Of a stretch of 64,000 nucleotides of DNA, positions 1-38,002 are shown piece after piece; the stretch's first letter is position 1; each line of letters opens with the position of its first letter. A program made the translations under genes and the position numbers. The notes under the pieces are model-generated. The model did no database searches. It was not told the origin of the DNA and saw only the letters and a list, made by a program, of their open reading frames with translations. Origin of the DNA: Octopus vulgaris (lineage: Eukaryota); NCBI GenBank assembly GCA_951406725.2, contig OX597820.1, positions 45,198,001 to 45,262,000 on the forward strand, in the 5' to 3' direction.

Positions 1-795
1 TGGTAATTTGGGGGACGATAAACAATGCCAAGCAGGAGTGTTGACATGGTCATACGTATGTCATAGAAAAAAGCTTCTTCTCGTGATTCGTTCAAATCAG
101 CACAAGGAATTACCGAAAAATTTGAACGAACGTAGACCATCACACCACCACCATGGCAGTTAATGCTGTCCTTGCGGAAAAGGTTGTACCCAGTAATGTT
201 GAAAACCCCATCACAGAGTAAGGAATGTGCCCATGTTTCCGTGACTGTGATGAAGTCAGGGTCAATACTTCTGACGTAGGAGTTGAACAGATGTATTTTG
301 TTGCATAAACTGCGATCATTTAAGGACAACAATTTGTACCCTGCTTGCAGTTTATGATGGTGTGTAGAGGATGGCAGGTTGTTCTGGTTTAGTTTCCCAT
401 AGTTGCTGTAGTTTTTTTTCCATTTTCAGTTATTGTGAGTAGAGAGCACTCAGACCAGGTGGTATCTCTCTTCCACGTTTCACCAGTCTTAACAAATCTC
501 CAGATTTGTCCATCCTCACGAAGACTGAAACTTTCTTGCAGAGCTGAGTTCCGGTTCAGGGAAGCTGCTACACGTAGCTTCGGACGTAAATCGGGTGGTA
601 AGCCTGGGCTTGTTTGGAAGGTAGTCCGATTTTCACGCCCAGCTTTAACTGAGGCCAGATGGTATGAGGTTGCCTCAGCATTGTCTGAAAAAGACAGCTT
701 GATGAGCCTGGTTTTTGGGCCAGGTCGTCCAAGGTGGAGAACACCCATTCGGGGAACGCAGCCTAAGTCTTTGGCTGAGTTGGAGGAAATGCCTG
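1..795 (-). mobile_element. CR1-clade LINE fragment: ORF1 C-terminus plus ORF2 AP-endonuclease, running off the window edge
   Basis: Minus-strand translation near 340..1 gives LLSLNDRSLCNK...ITVTETW...GYNLFRKD...GGGVMVYV...LLGIVYRPP, typical APE motifs. Upstream ORF 389-748 has the CR1 ORF1-like HLGRPGPKTRLIKLSF. Confidence 0.85.
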
Positions 796-858
796 AAGAT
801 TAACCATGTCTTCTGGTACCCCAATGGCAATAACTTCGTGGGTAGCAGAATCCACGTT

Positions 859-1448
859 CTTTAAGGAAGGCCCTTGTGAGAGGATGGGTACCTGTAAGAA
901 GAAATTTAAGTGGCTGTGGTGGATCCCTAGGTGTAGGTAGTTTTACCTCTCCATTTGAACAGCACAATCCCGCTGTTTCTCCTATCCATTTTTTAGCACT
1001 GCAAAATTGACAAGTTTTAGACATGCCGCCAATCTGATTGTGAGGGTGGTCTGCATAATCATTAGTGGGAACATAAGTGAAAGCCTTCAATGACCATTGT
1101 GATTTTATTGCTCTCGAAATACCTTGCTTATTGGCTTTGTACTGAGAAACATCCCCCTAGTCGATTGGATCTGTTATCTGCTGTCGCTGCAGCTCTGGCA
1201 GATGCAGTAGAAGCAGCGTCTCTGCTCAGATGCAGCTCACATTGAGCATCGTTCTCTGCAGCTCTGGCAAATGCCGTAGAGGCAGCATTTCTATTCAGAT
1301 GTAGTTCATGTTGTGCATCGTTCTCAGCAGCTGCAGCCTTTCGGTCTAAACGAAGTCTATGCTGACTATTTTTGTCTGCAGCTTGTACATCTGCATTAAT
1401 TGTTGCATTTCCATTGTTCTGATGTGGAACATTTTCATTATCCAGCAT
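859..1448 (-). mobile_element. Helitron RepHel N-terminal fragment (copy 1)
   Basis: ORF 1128-1448 has A-E-N-D-A-Q-x-E-L-H-L repeats. ORF 800-1090 has IGGMSKTCQFCSAKKWIGETAGLCCSNGEVKLP, the Helitron N-terminal Cys/Zn motif. Confidence 0.85.
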
Positions 1449-1590
1449 TTCATTAATAGAGTGATGACCTGAAGTTATTTATGGTTTAAAATAAAAGAAA
1501 TTGAGCCTCAAAAAAAAAATAATAATAACATGGAAAAACCTTATTTGCCATCTTATGATATTGCTAGTTTCAAAAACAGTGTTTATGTGA

Positions 1591-1660
1591 TAATGTTATA
1601 CAATTGGATAATGTTATACAATTGGATAATGTTATACAATTGGGAATGTTATACAATTGG
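1591..1660. repeat. 18-bp tandem repeat (TAATGTTATACAATTGGA) x~4
   Basis: Seen directly in the sequence. Confidence 0.9.
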
Positions 1661-2330
1661 AGAAGGAATTGGATTGATTTTCCCACCCAGTCTTTTTGTC
1701 CTAGAACAGCGATTTCAAGGATTTTTGTCTCTACCATTTCAAAGCAGATGGCAGAGACTAACCATTGTATTTCAACATCAGGTGGTACATTTTTTATTTG
1801 GACTTTCGTCAGTCTCTGGTTTAAATAGATTGGTATCATTACCAAGTCGTCTGAATGCAGCTCCAATGTGGAGAATCGTTTTGCTAAATTTTCGTTGAGG
1901 AAACGTACTTGGACTGTACCAAATTTATTTCCCCAACTGATAAACTCCTTAGAGTCCCATGTAGGACGAAGGCATTTTTCAATTTTTTCATGCGGTGCAT
2001 TTTCTGGTCGTTTTGTTTTCTTGTTGATGACTTTCTAGATTATTGTCTTTTTTTGTGTGTTTTCCACGATGTGTTGTGGAATGTGAAGATGCAATTTGTC
2101 TCCTTCTTTGGTGAAGAGTGCTTTTGTGAGGTTTATTTCCTGTGTGGTGAATTTTACGATTGCTCGTTTTTGTTTTGTCGCATCCGTGAAGTTCATTTTA
2201 ATATTGGCGGTGTTAGCAGCAGAAGGGTTGGTTGTAGCAGTTGAAGTCGTGGTCATGGTAGTGGTGTTGGTGTTGGCAGTGTTGTCTTTGGTAGGCAACT
2301 TTGAACTTTTGTCAGCACCATTATGTACCA
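1650..2330 (-). mobile_element. L1/Tx1-like LINE ORF1 (gag-like) remnant
   Basis: Frameshifted translation gives FGTVQVRFLNENLAKRF...RLTKVQIKNVPPDVEIQWL, resembling Tx1/L1 ORF1 RRM regions. Confidence 0.5.
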
Positions 2331-2682
2331 GAGAGATTCTGGTATTTCTTAAAGCATGTACAGAATGACTGCAATTAGAATACCCAGGAAAAGCAGGGGC
2401 TAGACTGATGTTTCTGGTTCTTGATGCGTCAGCTTTAAAGCCTTTTGTTGTTGTATTCTTACTTTTTGTCTCGAAATCAATTTTTGCCATTTCGAAATTA
2501 TTGTCATAAACCAACCAAGTTGAATATTCTGACTTACTCCAGATTGTGGATACATAACTCATATGCATAACTTATTGGCACGGATATCAAGGAATGCAGT
2601 ATTTTCATATTTGGTATTTCTATCGTAAGGGTGAAATTTTCTCTCCATTGAAGTTGTGAAAACTATATATCTGTGAAATATA

Positions 2683-3558
2683 CTAGCAGTGTAGCCCGGT
2701 GTTGCTCTGGTTTGTTTTTTAGTTGCACTTAAAACAGCAGACTTTGATGTCACGTTAACACAGCTTTGACATAGTTTCAATCTACGAATAAAAGTATAGT
2801 GTGACGATGCTCGAGTTTGCTCTGAATGTGCTGCAAATGTGTAATACCGACTTCAGTTGTTGGTATTGTTGGCTAAAATTCCTTCTATTAACATTATTCC
2901 ATAGGAGCTGATTCCAAAGCGTATTTAAAGCTCTGAATGTAGCTGTTGTCCTGTGAAGCATTTCTTGCAATTCAAGAAGGGGGCCGATTCTAGCTTGCAG
3001 TTTAGTTGAGTATTTATCGTTTTCATCTGTGAAGGCAAATAAATTTTGCCTTGCTGCTTGTTGAAAGCTGTCTGAAATAAAGTATAGCTGGAGAAATTGC
3101 AGTGGATTATTATCAACAGGCTGTAGAGAGCTGATAAAATGATGCACCTGACCGTGAACTTTAAAAGTTGGTATAAATTCCTTATCAAATTTATAACCGG
3201 ATCCAAATGGGTTCATCTGGAAGGCACAATTGTAATGTCGGATACCTTTAAGGAAGGCCCTTGAGAGAGGATGAGTACGTGTAAGAAGAAATTTAAGTGG
3301 CTGTGGTGGATCCCTAGGTGTAGGTAGTTATACCTTTCCATTTGAATAGCACAATCCCGCTGGTTCACCTATCTATTTTTTAGCACTGCAAAATTGATAA
3401 GTTTTAGACATGCCGCCAATCTGATTGTGAGGGTGGTCTGCATAATCATTAGTGGGAACATAAGTGAAAGCCTTCAATGACCATTGTGATTTTATTGCTC
3501 TTGAAATACCTTGCCTATTGGCTTTGTACTGAGAAACATCCCCCAAGTCGATTGGATC
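2683..3558 (-). mobile_element. Internally deleted Helitron (copy 2) with 3' hairpin and CTAG end
   Basis: ORF 2782-3216 has PTFKVHGQVHHFISSLQP...LQFLQLYF (RepHel). 3247-3558 duplicates 859-1171. The minus-strand 3' end reads ...gagcaacaccgggctacactgCTAG at 2683. Confidence 0.85.
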
Positions 3559-3798
3559 GTGTTTAGCCCCTTGTGGGTAGTAAAGAAATATATATATCGG
3601 GGTGACATTGCTTGCTTTATCCAAGAAACAAATTATCTGAAGAGCCCCAAAAGTATGACGAGTGTTGGAATAAAATAAAATTCATTACCTGAAAAACATG
3701 GGTTGGTGACAGGAAGAGCCTCCATCCTTAGAAAGTTTCATTCTAACCCATGCCAAACATGGAACAACAAACAAATATCAGATGAAAAATAAGGATAC

Positions 3799-4037
3799 CT
3801 GTTTAAGCATATCTCCAAGAGACATACATTCTTTGTTTGGTTTAGAATCTGAATCACTTGTCTTTAGAGCAGGTGGTGGTGGTGGTGGTGGTGGTGGTGG
3901 AGGCGGTGCTACTGCTCGTAGCACTGGTGGTATTGGTGGTGGTGGTGGCGGCGGAACTGAAGTTCTTGGTAAATGTGCTTTTGATGTTGGTGACACTGTA
4001 GAATGATTTGATGTCCCTTCTGATTTGAAAGCTGTGG
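3799..4037 (-). CDS. Internal coding exon of a proline-rich protein (two polyproline tracts, ending CMSLGDMLKQ, a possible WH2-like helix start)
   Basis: Open frame with a pyrimidine-rich acceptor (ttacctccctttgtag) and a CAG|GTATCC donor; phase 1 in, phase 0 out. Partner exons were not identified. Confidence 0.75.
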
Positions 4038-4169
4038 CTACAAAGGGAGGTAAAAAATAAACATAACAGCACACATTTTTTTAATTTATTAAAATTTAGC
4101 AGAAGCAACAGAGTTTGATAAGTACTAGTACACAAAACTCTCAGTCCTTGAGTCACTCTGTTGCTTCTG

Positions 4170-4385
4170 CTAAATATTGATTTCAAAATTTGGCACAAGA
4201 CCAAACCAAGAGGAGGTAAGTCGATCACATCAACCTCAATATTTGACTAGAACTTAATTAATCAACCCCAAAGGAATAAAAGACAAAGTCGACCTAGGCG
4301 GAATTTGAACTCAGAATGCAAAGACAGACAAAATGAAGCTAAACATCTGGCCCGGCATGCAAACAATTCTGCCAGCTCACCACCC
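4170..4385 (-). mobile_element. tRNA-derived SINE (family C, ggcgagctggcagaat head)
   Basis: Matches the copies at 14093, 41793 and 59465; B-box-like gagttcaaattcc. Confidence 0.8.
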
Positions 4386-4399
4386 TGCTTCTGTTAAAC

Positions 4400-4690
4400 A
4401 TCATCATCAACGTCTGCTTTCTATGCTGGCATGGGTTGGACGGTTTGACTGAGAAATGGCAAGCTGAGAGGCTGCACCAGGCTCCAATCTGATTTGACAA
4501 GGTTTCTACTGCTGGATGCCTTTCCTAACACCAACCACCCAGAGAGTGTAGTGGGTGCTTTTACGTGCCACCAGCATGGCAGTCAGTCAAGCGGCACTGG
4601 CATCAGTCACAGTTGAATGGTACTTTGTACGTGCCAGTCAGACAGCAATGGTATCAGCCACACTCAAATGGTGCTTTTTACATACCAATA
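4400..4690 (-). mobile_element. RTE LINE 3' UTR fragment with (GAT)n tail
   Basis: Homologous to 12620-12907. Confidence 0.8.
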
Positions 4691-4809
4691 AAAGGAATAC
4701 ATACTTATGTTTTGAGTTCTATTTTTTCTATTTGCATCACCAAACCTATACACACACACACACACATATATATATATACAGCAGAAGCAACAGAGTTTGT
4801 AAGATGTGG

Positions 4810-5168
4810 TGCAAGTTGACCAAGATTGAGAGTATGATAGAAGAAAGCTTGCTCTTCATTCCGTAGAAGAAAAAATTCAAATCAGACCATGTTAAGACCA
4901 AAAATTATTTACATCAAAAAGGTGCTTTTTTTTCTATGAAAATCCCTATTTTTTTTTACAATTTTTTGACTGCTGTGTCGACATTATCTCTGTGTATTTC
5001 AACCAGAAAAATGTTCACTTAAAGAGAATAACAAGCTACATAATGCAAAATTTTTACTTTTCAAAAAAGATTGAAACTATGTCAAAACTTTGTTAACGCA
5101 ACATCAAAGTCTGCCGTTTTAAGCGCAACTAAAAAACAAACCCGAGCAACGTCGGGCTATACTGCTAG
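4810..5168 (+). mobile_element. Non-autonomous Helitron, 3' part
   Basis: Ends cccgagcaacgtcgggctatactgCTAG-t. The body is homologous to 32740-33025 and to the reverse complement of 2683-2783. Confidence 0.8.
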
Positions 5169-5419
5169 TATATACATATATGCTGCAATACCATTACTTT
5201 TATCTCTTCCTTGCTCCAATCACTCTCACCACCTCTTCTGAAATGTAAGTAGTTACGTATATCCTCTACAGTAAAAGCAATTCGTCTCTTCTGGTTTCTT
5301 CATTGATACTTTAACCCCCTTATCGAGGGTGGAAGGGTGGCCTATCTGACAATCAAAGACTTGGTTTTTGTCTTCTGTTATAATTCTATTTTTATCTTAA
5401 TTAGTTTTGTAGGAATGGC

Positions 5420-6950: not shown

Positions 6951-7053
6951 GTTGAATTTTCTGCTGCTTTAAATAAAGCATATTACTCTACCACTGGTAT
7001 TTGAGTACTCTTTTTTCCACCTTGTTTCACATTTATGTGTTTACTCCGGTATA

Positions 7054-7425
7054 TCTCTCTATATATAAACGGCAGTTTGTCTGTGTGTGTTTCTGTGTGT
7101 CTGTTTGGTTGTACCCTCACCCTGATCACGGCTTTCAACCGATTCTGATAAAACTTGACACACACATAGCCCAATGTCATAATTCAAAACTAACGCAGCG
7201 AAAATTTTGAAAAGTTCCCCCAGTTCTGAAAAAAATCGATAAATTCGACATGGGGTCGAGAATCAGAAACACAAACCACAGACTGTCTAGGGGACGCAAC
7301 TCGACCTTTTTAACTAAAAGAAAAAAATTTACCATTTTTTTTTCCATTTTTTGGCTATAACTCTCTAAAAATGCTTTATAGTTATTTCCCTTACAAACCC
7401 GAGCAACGCCGGGCGATACTGCTAG
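7054..7425 (+). mobile_element. Non-autonomous Helitron
   Basis: 5' a|TC start; 3' hairpin cccgagcaacgccggg plus CTAG|t. Confidence 0.85.
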
Positions 7426-9081
7426 TATATATATAAATGATTGTATGTATATATGTGGATCACACTTTTCGATTCAAATTGTTGCTGTCAACTTCTCCCG
7501 AAAAATGAATTCCAGCTAAGCAATATTTAATTTAATTCAGCCCGTATCTACCAGAAATATTTCTATGCAATTGATTGATCTTTGGTTTCCCCTGTTTATC
7601 TCTATTTATGTTATGACTTTTACTTTGTTTATTTCAGCCTCGCCTCATGTTATATATATGTATAATTCATTAGTTCTTCTCAATATATCGTTGTCTCTCT
7701 CATGTCTTGTGTTAAATATATAGTCCTATAGCTCGCCCCCTAATTTTATCGATCAGCCTCACGTCTCGTTAAATATAGAATAAATATTTTTATAATTTTA
7801 TAGCTCCTTATTTTATACCTACTGATAAGTTTTCCTTTCCAGTGGCGCCCACACATGGCTGCTAGTTTTCCTCTTCACATTGTCTTTCTATCTCTTTCGA
7901 TCACCACTCAACTTCCCCTTCACCACCACCCTATATACATTTCACGCTAGCCCCGGAAATAATGGTCACACTTTTCGATTCAAATTGTTGCTGTCAACTT
8001 CGTCCGAAAAATGAATTCCAGCTAAGCAATATTTAATTTAATTCAGCCCGTATCTACCAGAAATATTTCTATGCAATTGATTGATCTTTAGTTTCCCCTG
8101 TTTATCTCTATTTATGTTATGACTCTTACTTTGTTTATTTCAGCCTCGCTTCGTGTTATATATATTTTCCTATAACGGCTAATGTTATTTCTACCACTTT
8201 TCCTGCGGCTGATCACGTCGGTTTATTCTACCTTAAGATTTCTCTTAAGTTATATTATTTATTTAGGCTTTCCTCTGAGTAAGGGAAAATATAATGATTT
8301 ATCGTCACTTATACTAAAGTGTTATCATTGTATCTTTAACCCTAACTGCAGTTGTAACGTCATATAGACATATACGCATGGAACGCTAACTCAACGACTA
8401 TGTATGTTGAATATTTTAATCGTGTCCTTTAAACCGCTATAAGAAACATAAAACAAAGATTACAGAAATGCATATTTATCTATGCTCAGTTGAAAAACAA
8501 ACGTGAAGAGAAACATTTTCTTTTTAATTATTTATTTATATAAATGTAACATTTTATATTTATTTACAAGAAGAAAGATAACTTAGTCGTGAAGAAAAAC
8601 GACTTTAAATTCCTTAGCTAATTTCTTTTTCTATCTAATACGTTAACCAACAAATCAAAATAGATTTGTGATTAACGTAGACATGGCATAAAAATTTACC
8701 GATGTTTCCAAAAGAGTGAGTGTCGTGGAGTTGAATGACTACCGAACGAACACTAAAGTTTCTTCCCAAATCCAGGGTTTTTATAACTGCTCAACCTGAC
8801 CAAAAAGAATCGAAATTCAGGACAAACATTCTTTTCGAAACTTCTAGAATCTTTATACGAGCAGTTACACTAACCAATGGGAAAAGAACGAAAATGACAA
8901 TTCCTCGGCAAAAACATTACGTCATATTGCCAATTCGCGCCACATTTCAAAATGGGTTACTGTCATGCCTTTGGATGTCAGAAGTGAAAGAAGAAAAATC
9001 TGACGTCATTTTGACGTCACACTTTTTCTCGTCCATCTTCGTTTCTTTCCGTATAATTTACGCAAAATCAAAAACGCGTGT

Positions 9082-9660
9082 AAATATATCAAATTAAAAA
9101 ACGCAAATTATTTAGAATGTAAAAATCAAATATATCAAATTAAAAAACGCAAATTATTTAGAATGTAAAAATCAAATATATCAAATTAAAAAACGCAAAT
9201 TATTTAGAATGTAAAAATCAAATATATCAAATTAAAAAACGCAAATTATTTAGAATGTAAAAATCAAATATATCAAATTAAAAAACGCAAATTATTTAGA
9301 ATGTAAAAATCAAATATATCAAATTAAAAAACGCAAATTATTTAGAATGTAAAAATCAAATATATCAAATTAAAAAACGCAAATTATTTAGAATGTAAAA
9401 ATCAAATATATCAAATTCAAAAAACGCAAATTATTTAGAATGTAAAAATCAAATATATCAAATTAAAAAACGCAAATTATTTAGAATGTAAAAATCAAAT
9501 ATATCAAATTAAAAAACGCAAATTATTTAGAATGTAAAAATCAAATATATCAAATTAAAAAACGCAAATTATTTAGAATGTAAAAATCAAATATATCAAA
9601 TTAAAAAACGCAAATTATTTAGAATGTAAAAATCAAATATATCAAATTAATAAACGCAAA
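9082..9660 (+). repeat. 46-bp tandem array, ~12.5 near-identical copies, inside the Merlin left arm
   Basis: Unit aaatatatcaaattaaaaaacgcaaattatttagaatgtaaaaatc. Confidence 0.97.
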
Positions 9661-9860
9661 TTTATTCTTGCATTATTCATTATTGTTTTAAAAAAAGAAA
9701 TCACACCAAAATCTGCACAAATGAACCCCCATGACCATCACCGCGATTACATACACCAATCAGAATGACCACTGACCACCACGTGCGTAATTCAAACTTT
9801 GAAATTTATTCAGTTAGAAACTTTCAGTGTGATATCAACACGTGCTAAACAATTTTTAAT

Positions 9861-33559: not shown

Positions 33560-34760
33560 TCTCAAATGCAGTATAGTTGCCGGGGAGGATGAAATTCAGC
33601 CCGAGATATTAAAAACTATAAATAGAGAAGTTATTCCCTGGCTAACTGGTGTATGCCAAGAGATCTGGATCTCTAGAAAGGCACCAAAGCAATGGTAATC
33701 AGAGACGGCAATGCAATTTTATTTTAAGGGGAGACAAAAGATGAACCTTTAAGCTTTGAGAAAAGCATTAGACTACTTAATGGCAGGTCAACCAGGTAAA
33801 ACAAATTTGACCTGGTGTATTCTATGTTAGGTGTCTTGAAAAATAGCTGGAGAGATATTGTCAAGCCCAAAGTGATGTCGGAACATTGTCGATCTCAAGC
33901 TAGTGCGGCATTCATCCTCGATGCTGCAGAGCTGGCCAGATCTTTACTCTATAGCAAGTCTCCGAAAGGTCATGGGAGTATTGTCAAGAGATGTACGCTT
34001 GCATTGTTGACCTTTTACAAAAATCATCCCGCAATACAAATTTGTGCTCATATTCTGAAATACCTCCGGGTACTAAAGTTTGGCGACGAGCCTGCTGCAG
34101 GACATGCTGTGGAGGTGTTTTTTTCCTTTTTTTTTTGCATAAGTTTGCAGTCGACTGGCAACTTCTCATTACCATGAACTCCCTGTACAAATGTCCTAAT
34201 GTTTTTTGATCGATTAAATTGTGCTAAGTTGAAACCTTTTAATGTAGGCGTTGGACTCAGTCAGGCGTGTATATTGTCGCTTCTCCATTTCACAAACTTT
34301 GTAAGCTGGATTGACATGAGCAGCCGTGGTGGAAGTGATATAAAAATGGCAGATGTACAATTAATCGGCTATTTGCAGATGACATGGTACTAATGATGAT
34401 GTTCTGCAGCACTCACTAAATAAGTTTGCTGTCGAGTGTTGTAAAGCAAGAACGAAAATCAGTTTTGCGAAGCCATTGATCATCTCGAGGACGCTTGCTC
34501 CGCATGCTTTGTATTTTAGTGGCGTCACACTGATGCAGGAGAAGTTTAAGTGTACCGGTATTGTTTTTTCGAGTGATGGAAGACAGGAGGTTGAATTGGA
34601 TGCAAGAATTGCTAGTGCTAGTGCAATTATACACCAGTTTCAGCCCTAGTTAATAAGGGAGGTAAGCTGAAACAGCAAAACTCGCTATTTTTAATTCTGC
34701 TTTTGTGCCTACTCTTACCTATGATTACGAATCTCGGCAGCGACCGAAAAGTGTATGATC
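33560..34760 (+). mobile_element. Highly degenerate LINE reverse-transcriptase remnant (RTE-like)
   Basis: AGEDEIQPEILK, FNVGVGLSQACILSLLHF and LFADD-like motifs, with many disruptions. Confidence 0.7.
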
Positions 34761-37226
34761 GCAATACAACCCTTATCGTGCGTGTCTATTATCAAAAGCT
34801 TAAAGCTGTTACCGTCCTGTCCTTTTGTGTAAGGGACGACATTCTCCAATGCACCCGTCTATATTTACGACAATGGGAAGTGATTTGAGAAAAATTTGAC
34901 TGATATTCTAACAGGTTGAGCAATCGTGTAGAGCCGCCTATGTACTTGATGTTGATACTTTTACTAGAGCAAAAAAGGTATCGAGTTTGAGGTAGAAGTG
35001 GGTCGTTGAAATTCGGAGGAAAAAATGTCCGACTAAATTACATAAACAAAACAACTATACATACAAAAATATACTGTTGATGTTTTTGAAGTTCCAATGA
35101 AAAAACCTTGGATCTAAGTTAAAAACCAGTTCTTTATTGGCAAGAAATCTTCAAATAAAACTGAATAACGACATATACATATTTATATATAGTGGATCTT
35201 GCAGGCATGAAGTGGATTCGATCCACCATAGCCAAATCTCAAGTAACAGCTCAAAAAACTTTTCTCACGGTGGAACAATAGTTTTTCTGTGACAGCAGTT
35301 TTACATTTGCCAAATTGCCTTAGTTTGGCCGAAATAATGTCTTCACCACTTGACCTTTCTAACCTCTTCTACTTCACCAAAAGCTAGAATTAAGATAACA
35401 AGTACCACCAACGAAATTCATTGTTTTCAACGATATGTCTATTCTTCTGGATAGGTATAAAAACAAGAACTCCCAAGCAAAAATCAGTTAGTCACTTGGT
35501 GACAACTCAGTTAGTCAGTTAGTGACAACTCGAGTTGGTGAGTTAGTGAGAACGGAGTCTGGCTGACCGGCTCAACAAAACGCCGTTTCTAAAGATAAGG
35601 GCACAAAAATGTCAACTATGGTAACTCACCATAGCAGTTGTTTCGTCCCACACTCTCTCACTCTCAATAGCTCACTGTATTTTCTCTTACAGCATGATTC
35701 TAATTCTATCTGTAATTACTACTACACAATAACTAGAACAAACACAACGAAAATCAACGACATATAACTTTACTTCGCAGGCTCTAGGATTTTATCACCT
35801 GCCCGTCGAGGCAAGGTATATTCAATATAACGGTAAATAAATATTTTCTTCATAACTTCAATCACTGTTCTTTCATCTTTACATAATGGCAATCAACAAA
35901 GAACCAATCCTTATCATCGTTAAGAAATTCAAATCCAGAATTTTCAACATCGAAGAAACATATTTCAGTTCGTAACGAGATAAATCGAGAGAGCACTTTT
36001 CCTTTCGAGAGTCACCGCACTTCTGTATGAAGTAGTAAGCACTTAAAATCAGAATCCATAGTTTTACATAGGGATGCAAAATGTCTGCACCGTAGGGAAT
36101 GCGATTTTATGTAATTCATCATTTTAACAACATTGTCCATCGTCTTCAGGAGACCATTAGGTAGAAGTTTTGACAACAAAACTTCGCGGTGAATCATGCA
36201 ATCTACAACTTAATTTGTTTCTAATACATGAGCCATGAAACCCTTTTTTCGACCCTGCATGGATGGAGCGCCATCAGTGCAAACGCTAATATAAGTTTGC
36301 CCCTGCATCCCTCTCAATACGACATTTTGGTTTACCAGATTAAAGACATCTTCTCCTGTCGTTCTTTCCTTCAATTCACAACAAAAGAAAAACTGACTTA
36401 TGATTTTAGCACCTCTAATGATTCGTAGAATTGAAATTAGTTGAGCTTTGTTGTTGATGTCTGTACTTTCACCGATTTGCACACAAGTTTTCGAGTTAAT
36501 TTTTTGCTCCAGTGAAATGTTCGCGGAGCTAATCCCCAATGTCTCGCGAAATGTCTTGAATTTTACGAGAAATCGTGTGGGCAGATAAAGGAATGGTTTT
36601 AATTTGTTTGACAGCTCCATCAATAATCATTGTGCCAATGGCTATCTCCAAGGCTGGTAAAATAATGTTTTCGACATCAGAATGTGTTTTTTTTTTCTTT
36701 GTCAAAAGCTGGGCAATCTTGTAACTAGCGATTTGAGCTTTCTCGGGAATTGAGTGAAATTTCTTCAGCCTTTTTGATTGAATTTTAAAATTATTTTTTA
36801 GCATCTCTAAGTATTCATTTGGTTTGTCCTTATGTTGCGGATGATTTGTTATTAAATGACGTTGAAGTTTACTGGGAACCATCGCTTCATTTGAGAGTGC
36901 TGTTAAACAAATCATACAAAAAGGAACCGAGTTGTCTTTTTCCGATAATATAAAACCATAATTGGATGTAATTTTCTTTATATTTCGTTTTGATGAGGTG
37001 GACTTTTTATTCTGGTATTCGTCTTGTTTGCTATGACTCTCTTTCTCATTTTTCTGAGGTCACAATAAAGATTTGTCCATGTTTAAATCTAAAACTAAAA
37101 ATCAATTAAAATTAACATAAAATAATTTATGTAAATTATAAATAAATCAAAAATTTAAAACTACTAGGATTACTAAACAATTTACTTAGAGACAAACCCG
37201 GTTTAAATGCAGAAATGTAATATATT

Positions 37227-37353
37227 CTTTTCTACTCTAGGCACAAAGCCCGAAATTTTTTGGGGAGGGGGCCAGTCGATTAGATCGACCTCAGTACGCA
37301 ACTGGTACTTAATTTATCGACCCCGAAAGGATGAAAGGCAAGGTCTACTTCGG
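37227..37353 (-). mobile_element. 3' body of a family C SINE fused to the 18S fragment
   Basis: Matches 41795-41925; the whole chimera is flanked by TATATT repeats. Confidence 0.9.
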
Positions 37354-37428
37354 AGACACCATGAACTTACACTTGCATGGCTTAAGCTTTGAGACAAGCA
37401 TATGACTACTGGCAGGATCAACCAGGTA
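37354..37428 (-). pseudogene. 18S rRNA 5'-terminal fragment (~75 nt)
   Basis: TACCTGGTTGATCCTGCCAGTAGTCATATGCTTGTCTCAAAG.TTAAGCCATGCA is the universal eukaryotic SSU rRNA 5' end, starting at the mature first nucleotide. Confidence 0.95.
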
Positions 37429-38002
37429 TATATTGTAGTAAAACTGCTGTTCGTCGTGTAACGTAATTAATTTATATTTATGCTCGAACTTTGCGAATTT
37501 CTTGAATCGTTGTTTCCCGAAAATCTCGCAAATATTTTTTCGCGGCACCCTAGGTATCTCTTGCGGCATACCACTGTGCTGCGGCACACAGTTTGGCAGA
37601 CACTGGTGTAGATAGTGAAGAGCCCTATAGGTTTTGACGAATTAATTTATATGTCGACACACAATCAGACAGTCACCGTTCCTTCTCATTTATATAACAA
37701 CGCTTATAATATCAATGGGAAAAGAATGAGCATCAGAAAATCTCGTTTGACTTTTCCTATAAATCTGCGCGCTTTCATACTTATGTAAGAAAATATTATT
37801 AACGTAGTTGTTATGTGTCAGCCATGTCACGTACTTTGTTATATTACCTGTTTTCATAGTGTCTTAGTTTACTTCCATAAAGAACACACACACACACACA
37901 CACACATGTCTGTGTATATATGTGTGCATGAATGTACGTATACATGTATACATATATATATGCATATTTGATTTAACCGAAAATGCAGAAATGACATATA
38001 TA

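Follow-up and report, generated by a model that had tools for sequence, protein, structure and literature searches.

An 18S rRNA-headed SINE chimera inside a hAT transposon of Octopus vulgaris and recurrent rRNA–SINE joins in the same genome

Introduction

Chimeric retrocopies are an event type that is already known, and the locus described here is real, single-copy and a probable case of it. Among described systems, the 28S/L1 chimeras (bioRxiv 10.1101/2025.02.02.635956), for which template switching or ligation was proposed, share with it an rRNA fragment lying in the same orientation 5′ of a truncated retroelement, the probable origin in one event and the rarity (18 loci there). They differ from it in that their fragments are derived from 28S, mostly from internal positions, with L1 as the partner, whereas an 18S piece from the mature 5′ end (and, at other loci of the same genome, 5.8S) is found here on SINEs; the term “18S” is absent from the available portion of that preprint. 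In platypus, the U6/L2 and U6/Mon-1 SINE chimeras (Doucet et al. 2015, PMC4476161) likewise combine a cellular RNA with a SINE within a duplication and are attributed to template switching, but at their head stands an entire small Pol III RNA, where our locus has part of a Pol I rRNA. This U6 class is abundant in the octopus genome too. The word “rRNA” does not occur in the accessible part of the text of PMC4476161.

A third point of comparison is provided by bipartite chimeric retrogenes, WEIRD/Mg-SINE of Magnaporthe among them (PMC2104539), which resemble our locus in having a 5′-truncated SINE as their 3′ part, direct repeats and variable junctions. The same source names ribosomal RNAs among the known components of chimeric retrogenes, and its strict U6-type chimeric retrogene has a full-length 5′ RNA, in contrast to the present locus, where the 18S part amounts to 69 of the about 2,640 nt of the 18S gene; several 5.8S chimeras elsewhere in the genome approach full length. 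Finally, the SINE3 (5S), SINE28 and SINEU families (PMC4758252, PMC4994717, PMC4494074, PMC10946416, PMC4824008) are multi-copy and have a shared structure, whereas we are dealing with one copy devoid of a Pol III B box. Families of that type have been proposed to arise when a template switch exchanges the head (PMC4758252, PMC4994717, PMC4494074, PMC10946416). Of the features of an rRNA-derived SINE family, the locus has neither many copies with a common head/body junction nor an internal Pol III promoter; of those of a chimeric retrocopy in the broad sense, it displays one duplication, a 5′-truncated 3′ part, parts in the same orientation and directly joined, and a junction differing from those of other such loci. 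Our search, which covered the open-access literature, returned no 18S- or 5.8S-headed SINE chimeras, and none in cephalopods.

Results

The window, i.e., the whole stretch of DNA that was analysed (64,000 nt of Octopus vulgaris contig OX597820.1), contains the following features:

35911..37605, minus strand: host of the insertion, a decayed hAT-type DNA transposon hit in its leader (from paralog matches, Pfam and Atlas)
37220..37226, plus strand: left copy of the target-site duplication, ATATATT (single in 10 of the 20 hAT paralogs with both flanks)
37222..37353, minus strand: 3′ 132 nt of the SINE (positions 91–222 of the full copy), 5′-truncated just past the B box (93.9% identical to full copy L003)
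37354..37359, minus strand: 6-nt filler GTGTCT that links the SINE to the 18S piece (from comparison with 18S nt 70 onwards and with the usual SINE letters)
37360..37428, minus strand: 18S rRNA nt 1–69, without 5′ETS (100% identical to rDNA array copies; Rfam RF01960 position 1 at 37428)
37428..37434, plus strand: right copy of the target-site duplication, ATATATT (first base common to 18S nt 1)

The rRNA-headed SINE chimera reported at this locus by the initial annotation is confirmed. Its 18S part, at 37428–37360 of the minus strand, is identical to 18S nt 1–69 as found in the rDNA array that this genome carries on contig C20. Its start is fixed by position 1 of the Rfam SSU model, which falls at 37428 and, in an rDNA array unit, at the equivalent base. 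Past nt 69, the array goes on with CCGTAAAC and the window with GTGTCT, so that the 18S junction lies at 37360/37359, while the sequence upstream of the piece belongs to the host hAT, with no 5′ETS. The exact mature 5′ end claimed for the rRNA piece thus stands, but its length, given as about 75 nt, has to be shortened to 69 nt, followed by a 6-nt filler up to the SINE. This filler (37359–37354), which matches neither 18S nt 70 onwards nor the usual SINE letters at that place, may be untemplated or due to a short slip.

The SINE part is a 5′-truncated retroelement with its own 3′ end (positions 91–222 of 222), the last bases of which overlap the target-site duplication. It starts 2–3 nt beyond the B box of the parent SINE, which agrees with the claim of a fusion just past the B-box position. 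We take this SINE to be tRNA-derived on account of its A- and B-box-like motifs. Both parts lie on the same strand, joined via the filler, inside one target-site duplication. Compared to the majority letters of its 29 closest copies, the SINE part shows 5 differences in 132 nt, three of which are at most 12 nt from the junction; the 18S part shows none in 69 nt, a weak hint that it may be the younger of the two. As a separate observation on this SINE, copies L002, L008, L013, L014, L017, L022, L023, L027 and L028 have the tail of a sister SINE at one fixed base within its head.

The host hAT codes for fragments of a FAM200/ZBED5-like hAT transposase, interrupted by stops and frameshifts. The Pfam match to zf-C2H2_12 has an E-value of 0.011, below the cut-off, and Atlas yields FAM200/ZBED5/GTF2IRD2-like matches at 0.95–0.96. 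The 5′ terminus of the host is near 37605, and the left limit at 35911 is only where the match to one paralog ends. A search with the right flank retrieved 29 paralogous hAT loci, 20 of them with both flanks present; among these, the insertion site is single-copy in 10, deleted in two, ambiguous in one and filled in seven. A 7-nt AT-rich repeat might by itself be due to chance, but the single site in the empty paralogs indicates a true duplication. The insertion inside the hAT leader is therefore borne out by the empty copies, as is the duplication itself, except that the repeat, first read as TATATT, is ATATATT, i.e., 7 nt and one base longer.

In six of the seven filled paralogs, the 3′ end of a SINE sits at the same base as here, with at least two tail types. 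These paralogs, hit at the base corresponding to window positions 37220–37226, are L088, L090, L097, L100, L103 and L115 (6/20, plus the present locus), and L090 holds two SINEs stacked at that base, which makes this base of the hAT leader a SINE hotspot; its surroundings have a sequence that matches the tail of the SINE. The duplications flanking four plain SINE insertions at this base measure 10–16 nt vs. 7 nt here (values partly read by eye). L090 is also the closest hAT paralog (92–99% identical over 36358–37220), but its SINEs are only 84–87% like that of the window, and one of them has an internal deletion. Shared ancestry with the L090 insertions was rejected on account of this low identity, and a segmental duplication with L090 because the match stops at the hAT limits. 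The SINE-bearing paralogs do not cluster in a tree built from 17 flanks, which is poorly resolved.

To the idea of an 18S-derived SINE family, one of the two readings offered by the initial annotation, the genome (2.8 Gb in 227 contigs) gives a negative answer. The 19-nt junction pattern has one exact match genome-wide, the present locus itself, and six two-mismatch matches (vs. 64 control matches), none of the six with adjoining 18S or SINE sequence. Likewise, none of the 43 other matches listed for the whole element (40 of 1,565 candidates scored) has the 18S part, and all start at query position 79 or beyond. GTTCRA, the Pol III box consensus used for the motif check, is found in the parent SINE but not in the chimera, which has just an A-box-like stretch at nt 5. 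ARAGORN found no tRNA, Rfam returned nothing in the window at the gathering score, and the predicted fold of the chimera RNA is no better than those of shuffled sequences (z 0.17). With its B box lost, the chimeric copy is predicted to be without Pol III transcription, hence inert and a dead end; one putative RNA contig set contains no junction, such contigs being unable to show absence. Single-copy in 2.8 Gb and without a B box, the chimera is not a propagating family, and the one of the two readings that finds support is the one-off event, a single co-insertion by a retrotransposon enzyme. The junction sequence is unique, but the event type recurs: SINEs elsewhere in the genome are joined to other pieces of 18S, 5.8S and U6, with junctions that differ.

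Genome-wide searches with two 18S patterns yielded 63 and 75 matches (3 and 0 for the controls). Together with two loci from the rDNA search and one locus of the window, the pattern matches amounted to 89 18S loci examined; dropping 17 long rDNA copies and one tandem array left 71 short dispersed pieces, of which 10 start at the mature end, 41 carry ETS-like sequence and 20 start inside 18S. A same-strand SINE or LINE 3′-UTR lies at most 60 nt downstream in 6/10 of the mature-start pieces, vs. 2/41 of those with ETS-like sequence and 0/20 of the internal ones. The difference between the mature-start class and all other pieces (6/10 vs. 2/61; Fisher p 4e-5) is indicative only, as are all p-values given here, since start classes were assigned with a short motif and by visual inspection, and part of the repeat library stems from the loci scored. 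At random window positions, a SINE or LINE tail was found on the same strand in 10/150 cases and on the opposite strand in 11/150. At one of the six positives, L122, the 18S piece patches a repeat; without it, 5/10 remain. At L062 (G000:C1:94345376-94345439), 18S nt 1–64 are joined via 5 nt of shared sequence (TAAGT) to the tail of a sister SINE, with a 12-nt duplication, while the script search for a duplication found none at L057. A clustering of 18S 3′ ends near nt 58–70 was set aside, such ends being favoured by the search patterns.

Several 18S pieces are of another kind. At L122 (G000:C23:27901566), the piece is patched into the repeat, where it replaces about 16 nt and shares bases at both ends. 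At L048 (G000:C3:149002763), a piece with 5′ETS breaks a nearly intact LINE reading frame. A decayed second 18S 5′ piece (nt 1–47, 84%) lies in the window itself, at 33749–33798, 3.6 kb from the chimera, where it interrupts the reverse transcriptase frame of an old LINE in antisense orientation, the LINE resuming on both sides. At L132 (G000:C21:35198921-35199325), 18S nt 1–130 are repeated in tandem, with a period of about 128 nt. As for the rDNA, locus L147 has its 18S gene at 7038–9680 (about 2,640 nt) and its 28S at 318–5208 (about 4,890 nt), both unusually long, in a unit of about 18.4 kb.

For 5.8S, all 37 pattern matches were examined and 13 long copies dropped. A same-strand SINE or LINE tail follows 9/11 mature-start pieces vs. 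0/13 ITS1-bearing ones (p 4e-5, indicative only). The chimeric loci without ITS1 (L213, L224, L227, L228, L229, L233, L234, L239 and L240) are mostly near full length and involve SINEs of at least two families. Five 5.8S pieces reach nt 153–160, which is the mature 3′ end or close to it; five precede near-complete or complete SINEs, with 3–52 filler bases that are often A/T-rich. At L213, L227, L229 and L233, a nearly whole 5.8S stands before a whole or truncated SINE, with duplications of 7–11 nt, and the L213 join has shared sequence at its junction; no duplication was found by script at L224, L234, L239 and L240, but one with mismatches is visible by eye at L234. Some 5.8S chimeras share bases with the target at their 5′ end, and others have repeated 5′ starts (L224, L239). 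Junctions differ between chimera loci, which points to independent events; the unlinked L228 and L240 have both rRNA ends in common (5.8S nt 6–61) but different fillers, A-rich in each and followed by a SINE head. Their common end is possibly a recurrent rRNA cleavage point.

A survey of the 28S 5′ end covered 22 loci, five short pieces of which begin 2–5 nt before the Rfam end; the piece at L200 has a SINE fragment downstream but ITS2-like sequence upstream. Among the best 30 of 48 U6 copies scored, 22 continue into a SINE or LINE tail on the same strand and one into a tail on the opposite strand, while seven have no such tail (five of these seven in one tandem cluster), which indicates that the machinery of this genome makes classic chimeras routinely. 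Among U6 copies L244–L273, eight join one short SINE tail at a nearly identical point.

Discussion

In our view, with a probability of roughly 0.75, the chimera arose by template switch during retrotransposition, when a LINE reverse transcriptase at work on SINE RNA moved to ribosomal RNA. This reading is based on the single duplication around both parts, along with the empty-site paralogs; on a piece that starts at the processed 5′ end without ETS, whereas 41 of the 71 short 18S pieces carry ETS-like sequence; and on the enrichment of SINE and LINE tails at mature 18S and 5.8S starts. The mature 5′ end, the missing ETS and the class enrichment are indirect signs of an RNA template. Synthesis would have been primed at the AT-rich target site, which matches the SINE tail, and 132 nt of SINE RNA would have been copied before release near the B box. 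After the addition of a few extra bases (the filler), the enzyme would have transferred to 18S at nt 69 and run off at the mature 5′ end, and the product would have been joined to the target through 1 nt of shared sequence. The transfer may have been aided by 18S nt 63–68 (AGTTCA), which repeat the B-box letters of the SINE one base out of register, and the 18S template may have been either a cleaved fragment or an intact rRNA entered from within.

Several points speak against a template switch: the 7-nt duplication is shorter than the 10–16 nt of the four plain SINE insertions, the 18S patches in existing repeats (L122, L048 and window 33749–33798) imply that capture without co-insertion occurs, the 18S part may be the younger of the two, and the script search found no duplication at L057, L224, L234, L239 and L240. 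The first three feed the main rival, in which a full SINE inserted first at the hotspot; its head, along with some of the 5′ duplication, was then lost through a break, and repair filled in an 18S fragment (DNA or cDNA). That SINEs end at the same base in 6/20 hAT paralogs, with longer duplications, fits such a history, as does the pristine state of the 18S part (0/69 vs. 5/132 for the SINE). Yet the SINEs of the closest paralog are different enough to stem from a different insertion, SINE-bearing paralogs remain ungrouped in the flank tree, poorly resolved as it is, and a repair patch explains neither the exact mature 5′ end nor the class pattern, so that we regard this history as unlikely. 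An 18S 5′ fragment might also have been ligated to a cleaved SINE RNA ahead of reverse transcription, with a product of identical shape; for U6/L1, such ligation reportedly involves RtcB (PMC6789731). The 6 filler bases, the bases shared across the junctions of L062 and L213 and the 5.8S pieces standing before complete SINEs with fillers are better explained by a polymerase jump. The primary 5′ end of a Pol III transcript would probably be a poor ligase substrate. Ligation is less probable still.

If the assembly had wrongly placed rDNA reads next to a SINE, this would account for the fact that no public contig bridges the junction: in 0/4 runs was there a piece over 37322–37357 or 37430–37500 at 98%. 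But the contigs are short-read ones, filtered and derived from other individuals or species; they amount to neither support nor refutation, and short-read contigs break at such repeats. Word shares of 0.3–0.6 in public data are explained by SINE and rDNA words. An artefact, however, would hardly duplicate the empty site of the paralogs exactly or begin precisely at a mature 5′ end, nor would it have many counterparts on other chromosomes, and we deem it very improbable. Membership of a propagating 18S-headed SINE family, in favour of which at least one other join of an 18S 5′ end exists in the same SINE group (L062), comes last in probability, given a single-copy junction, breakpoints and a partner proper to every other join, the missing GTTCRA B box and an RNA fold on a par with shuffles.

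Taken alone, the locus is one dead insertion, and its worth lies in the genome-wide set that it opens, especially the 5.8S and 18S series: in an invertebrate, at least five 18S-headed and at least nine 5.8S-headed SINE/LINE joins, along with many U6 ones. More speculatively, and with considerable doubt on our part, the retrotransposon machinery might regularly jump from SINE RNAs to mature rRNAs, SINE RNA being copied while touching ribosomes; the 18S- and 5.8S-headed chimeras would then be a class so far undescribed, in which real rRNA ends and cleavage points are preserved (5.8S nt 61 twice, 18S nt 64–69) and which serves as raw material for new SINE heads. The set itself adds 18S 5′ pieces and nearly whole 5.8S to the templates known so far, and its junction letters let template jumping be separated from RNA ligation. 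It also captures, as single events, the exchange of heads from which SINE3 and SINEU are proposed to have originated.
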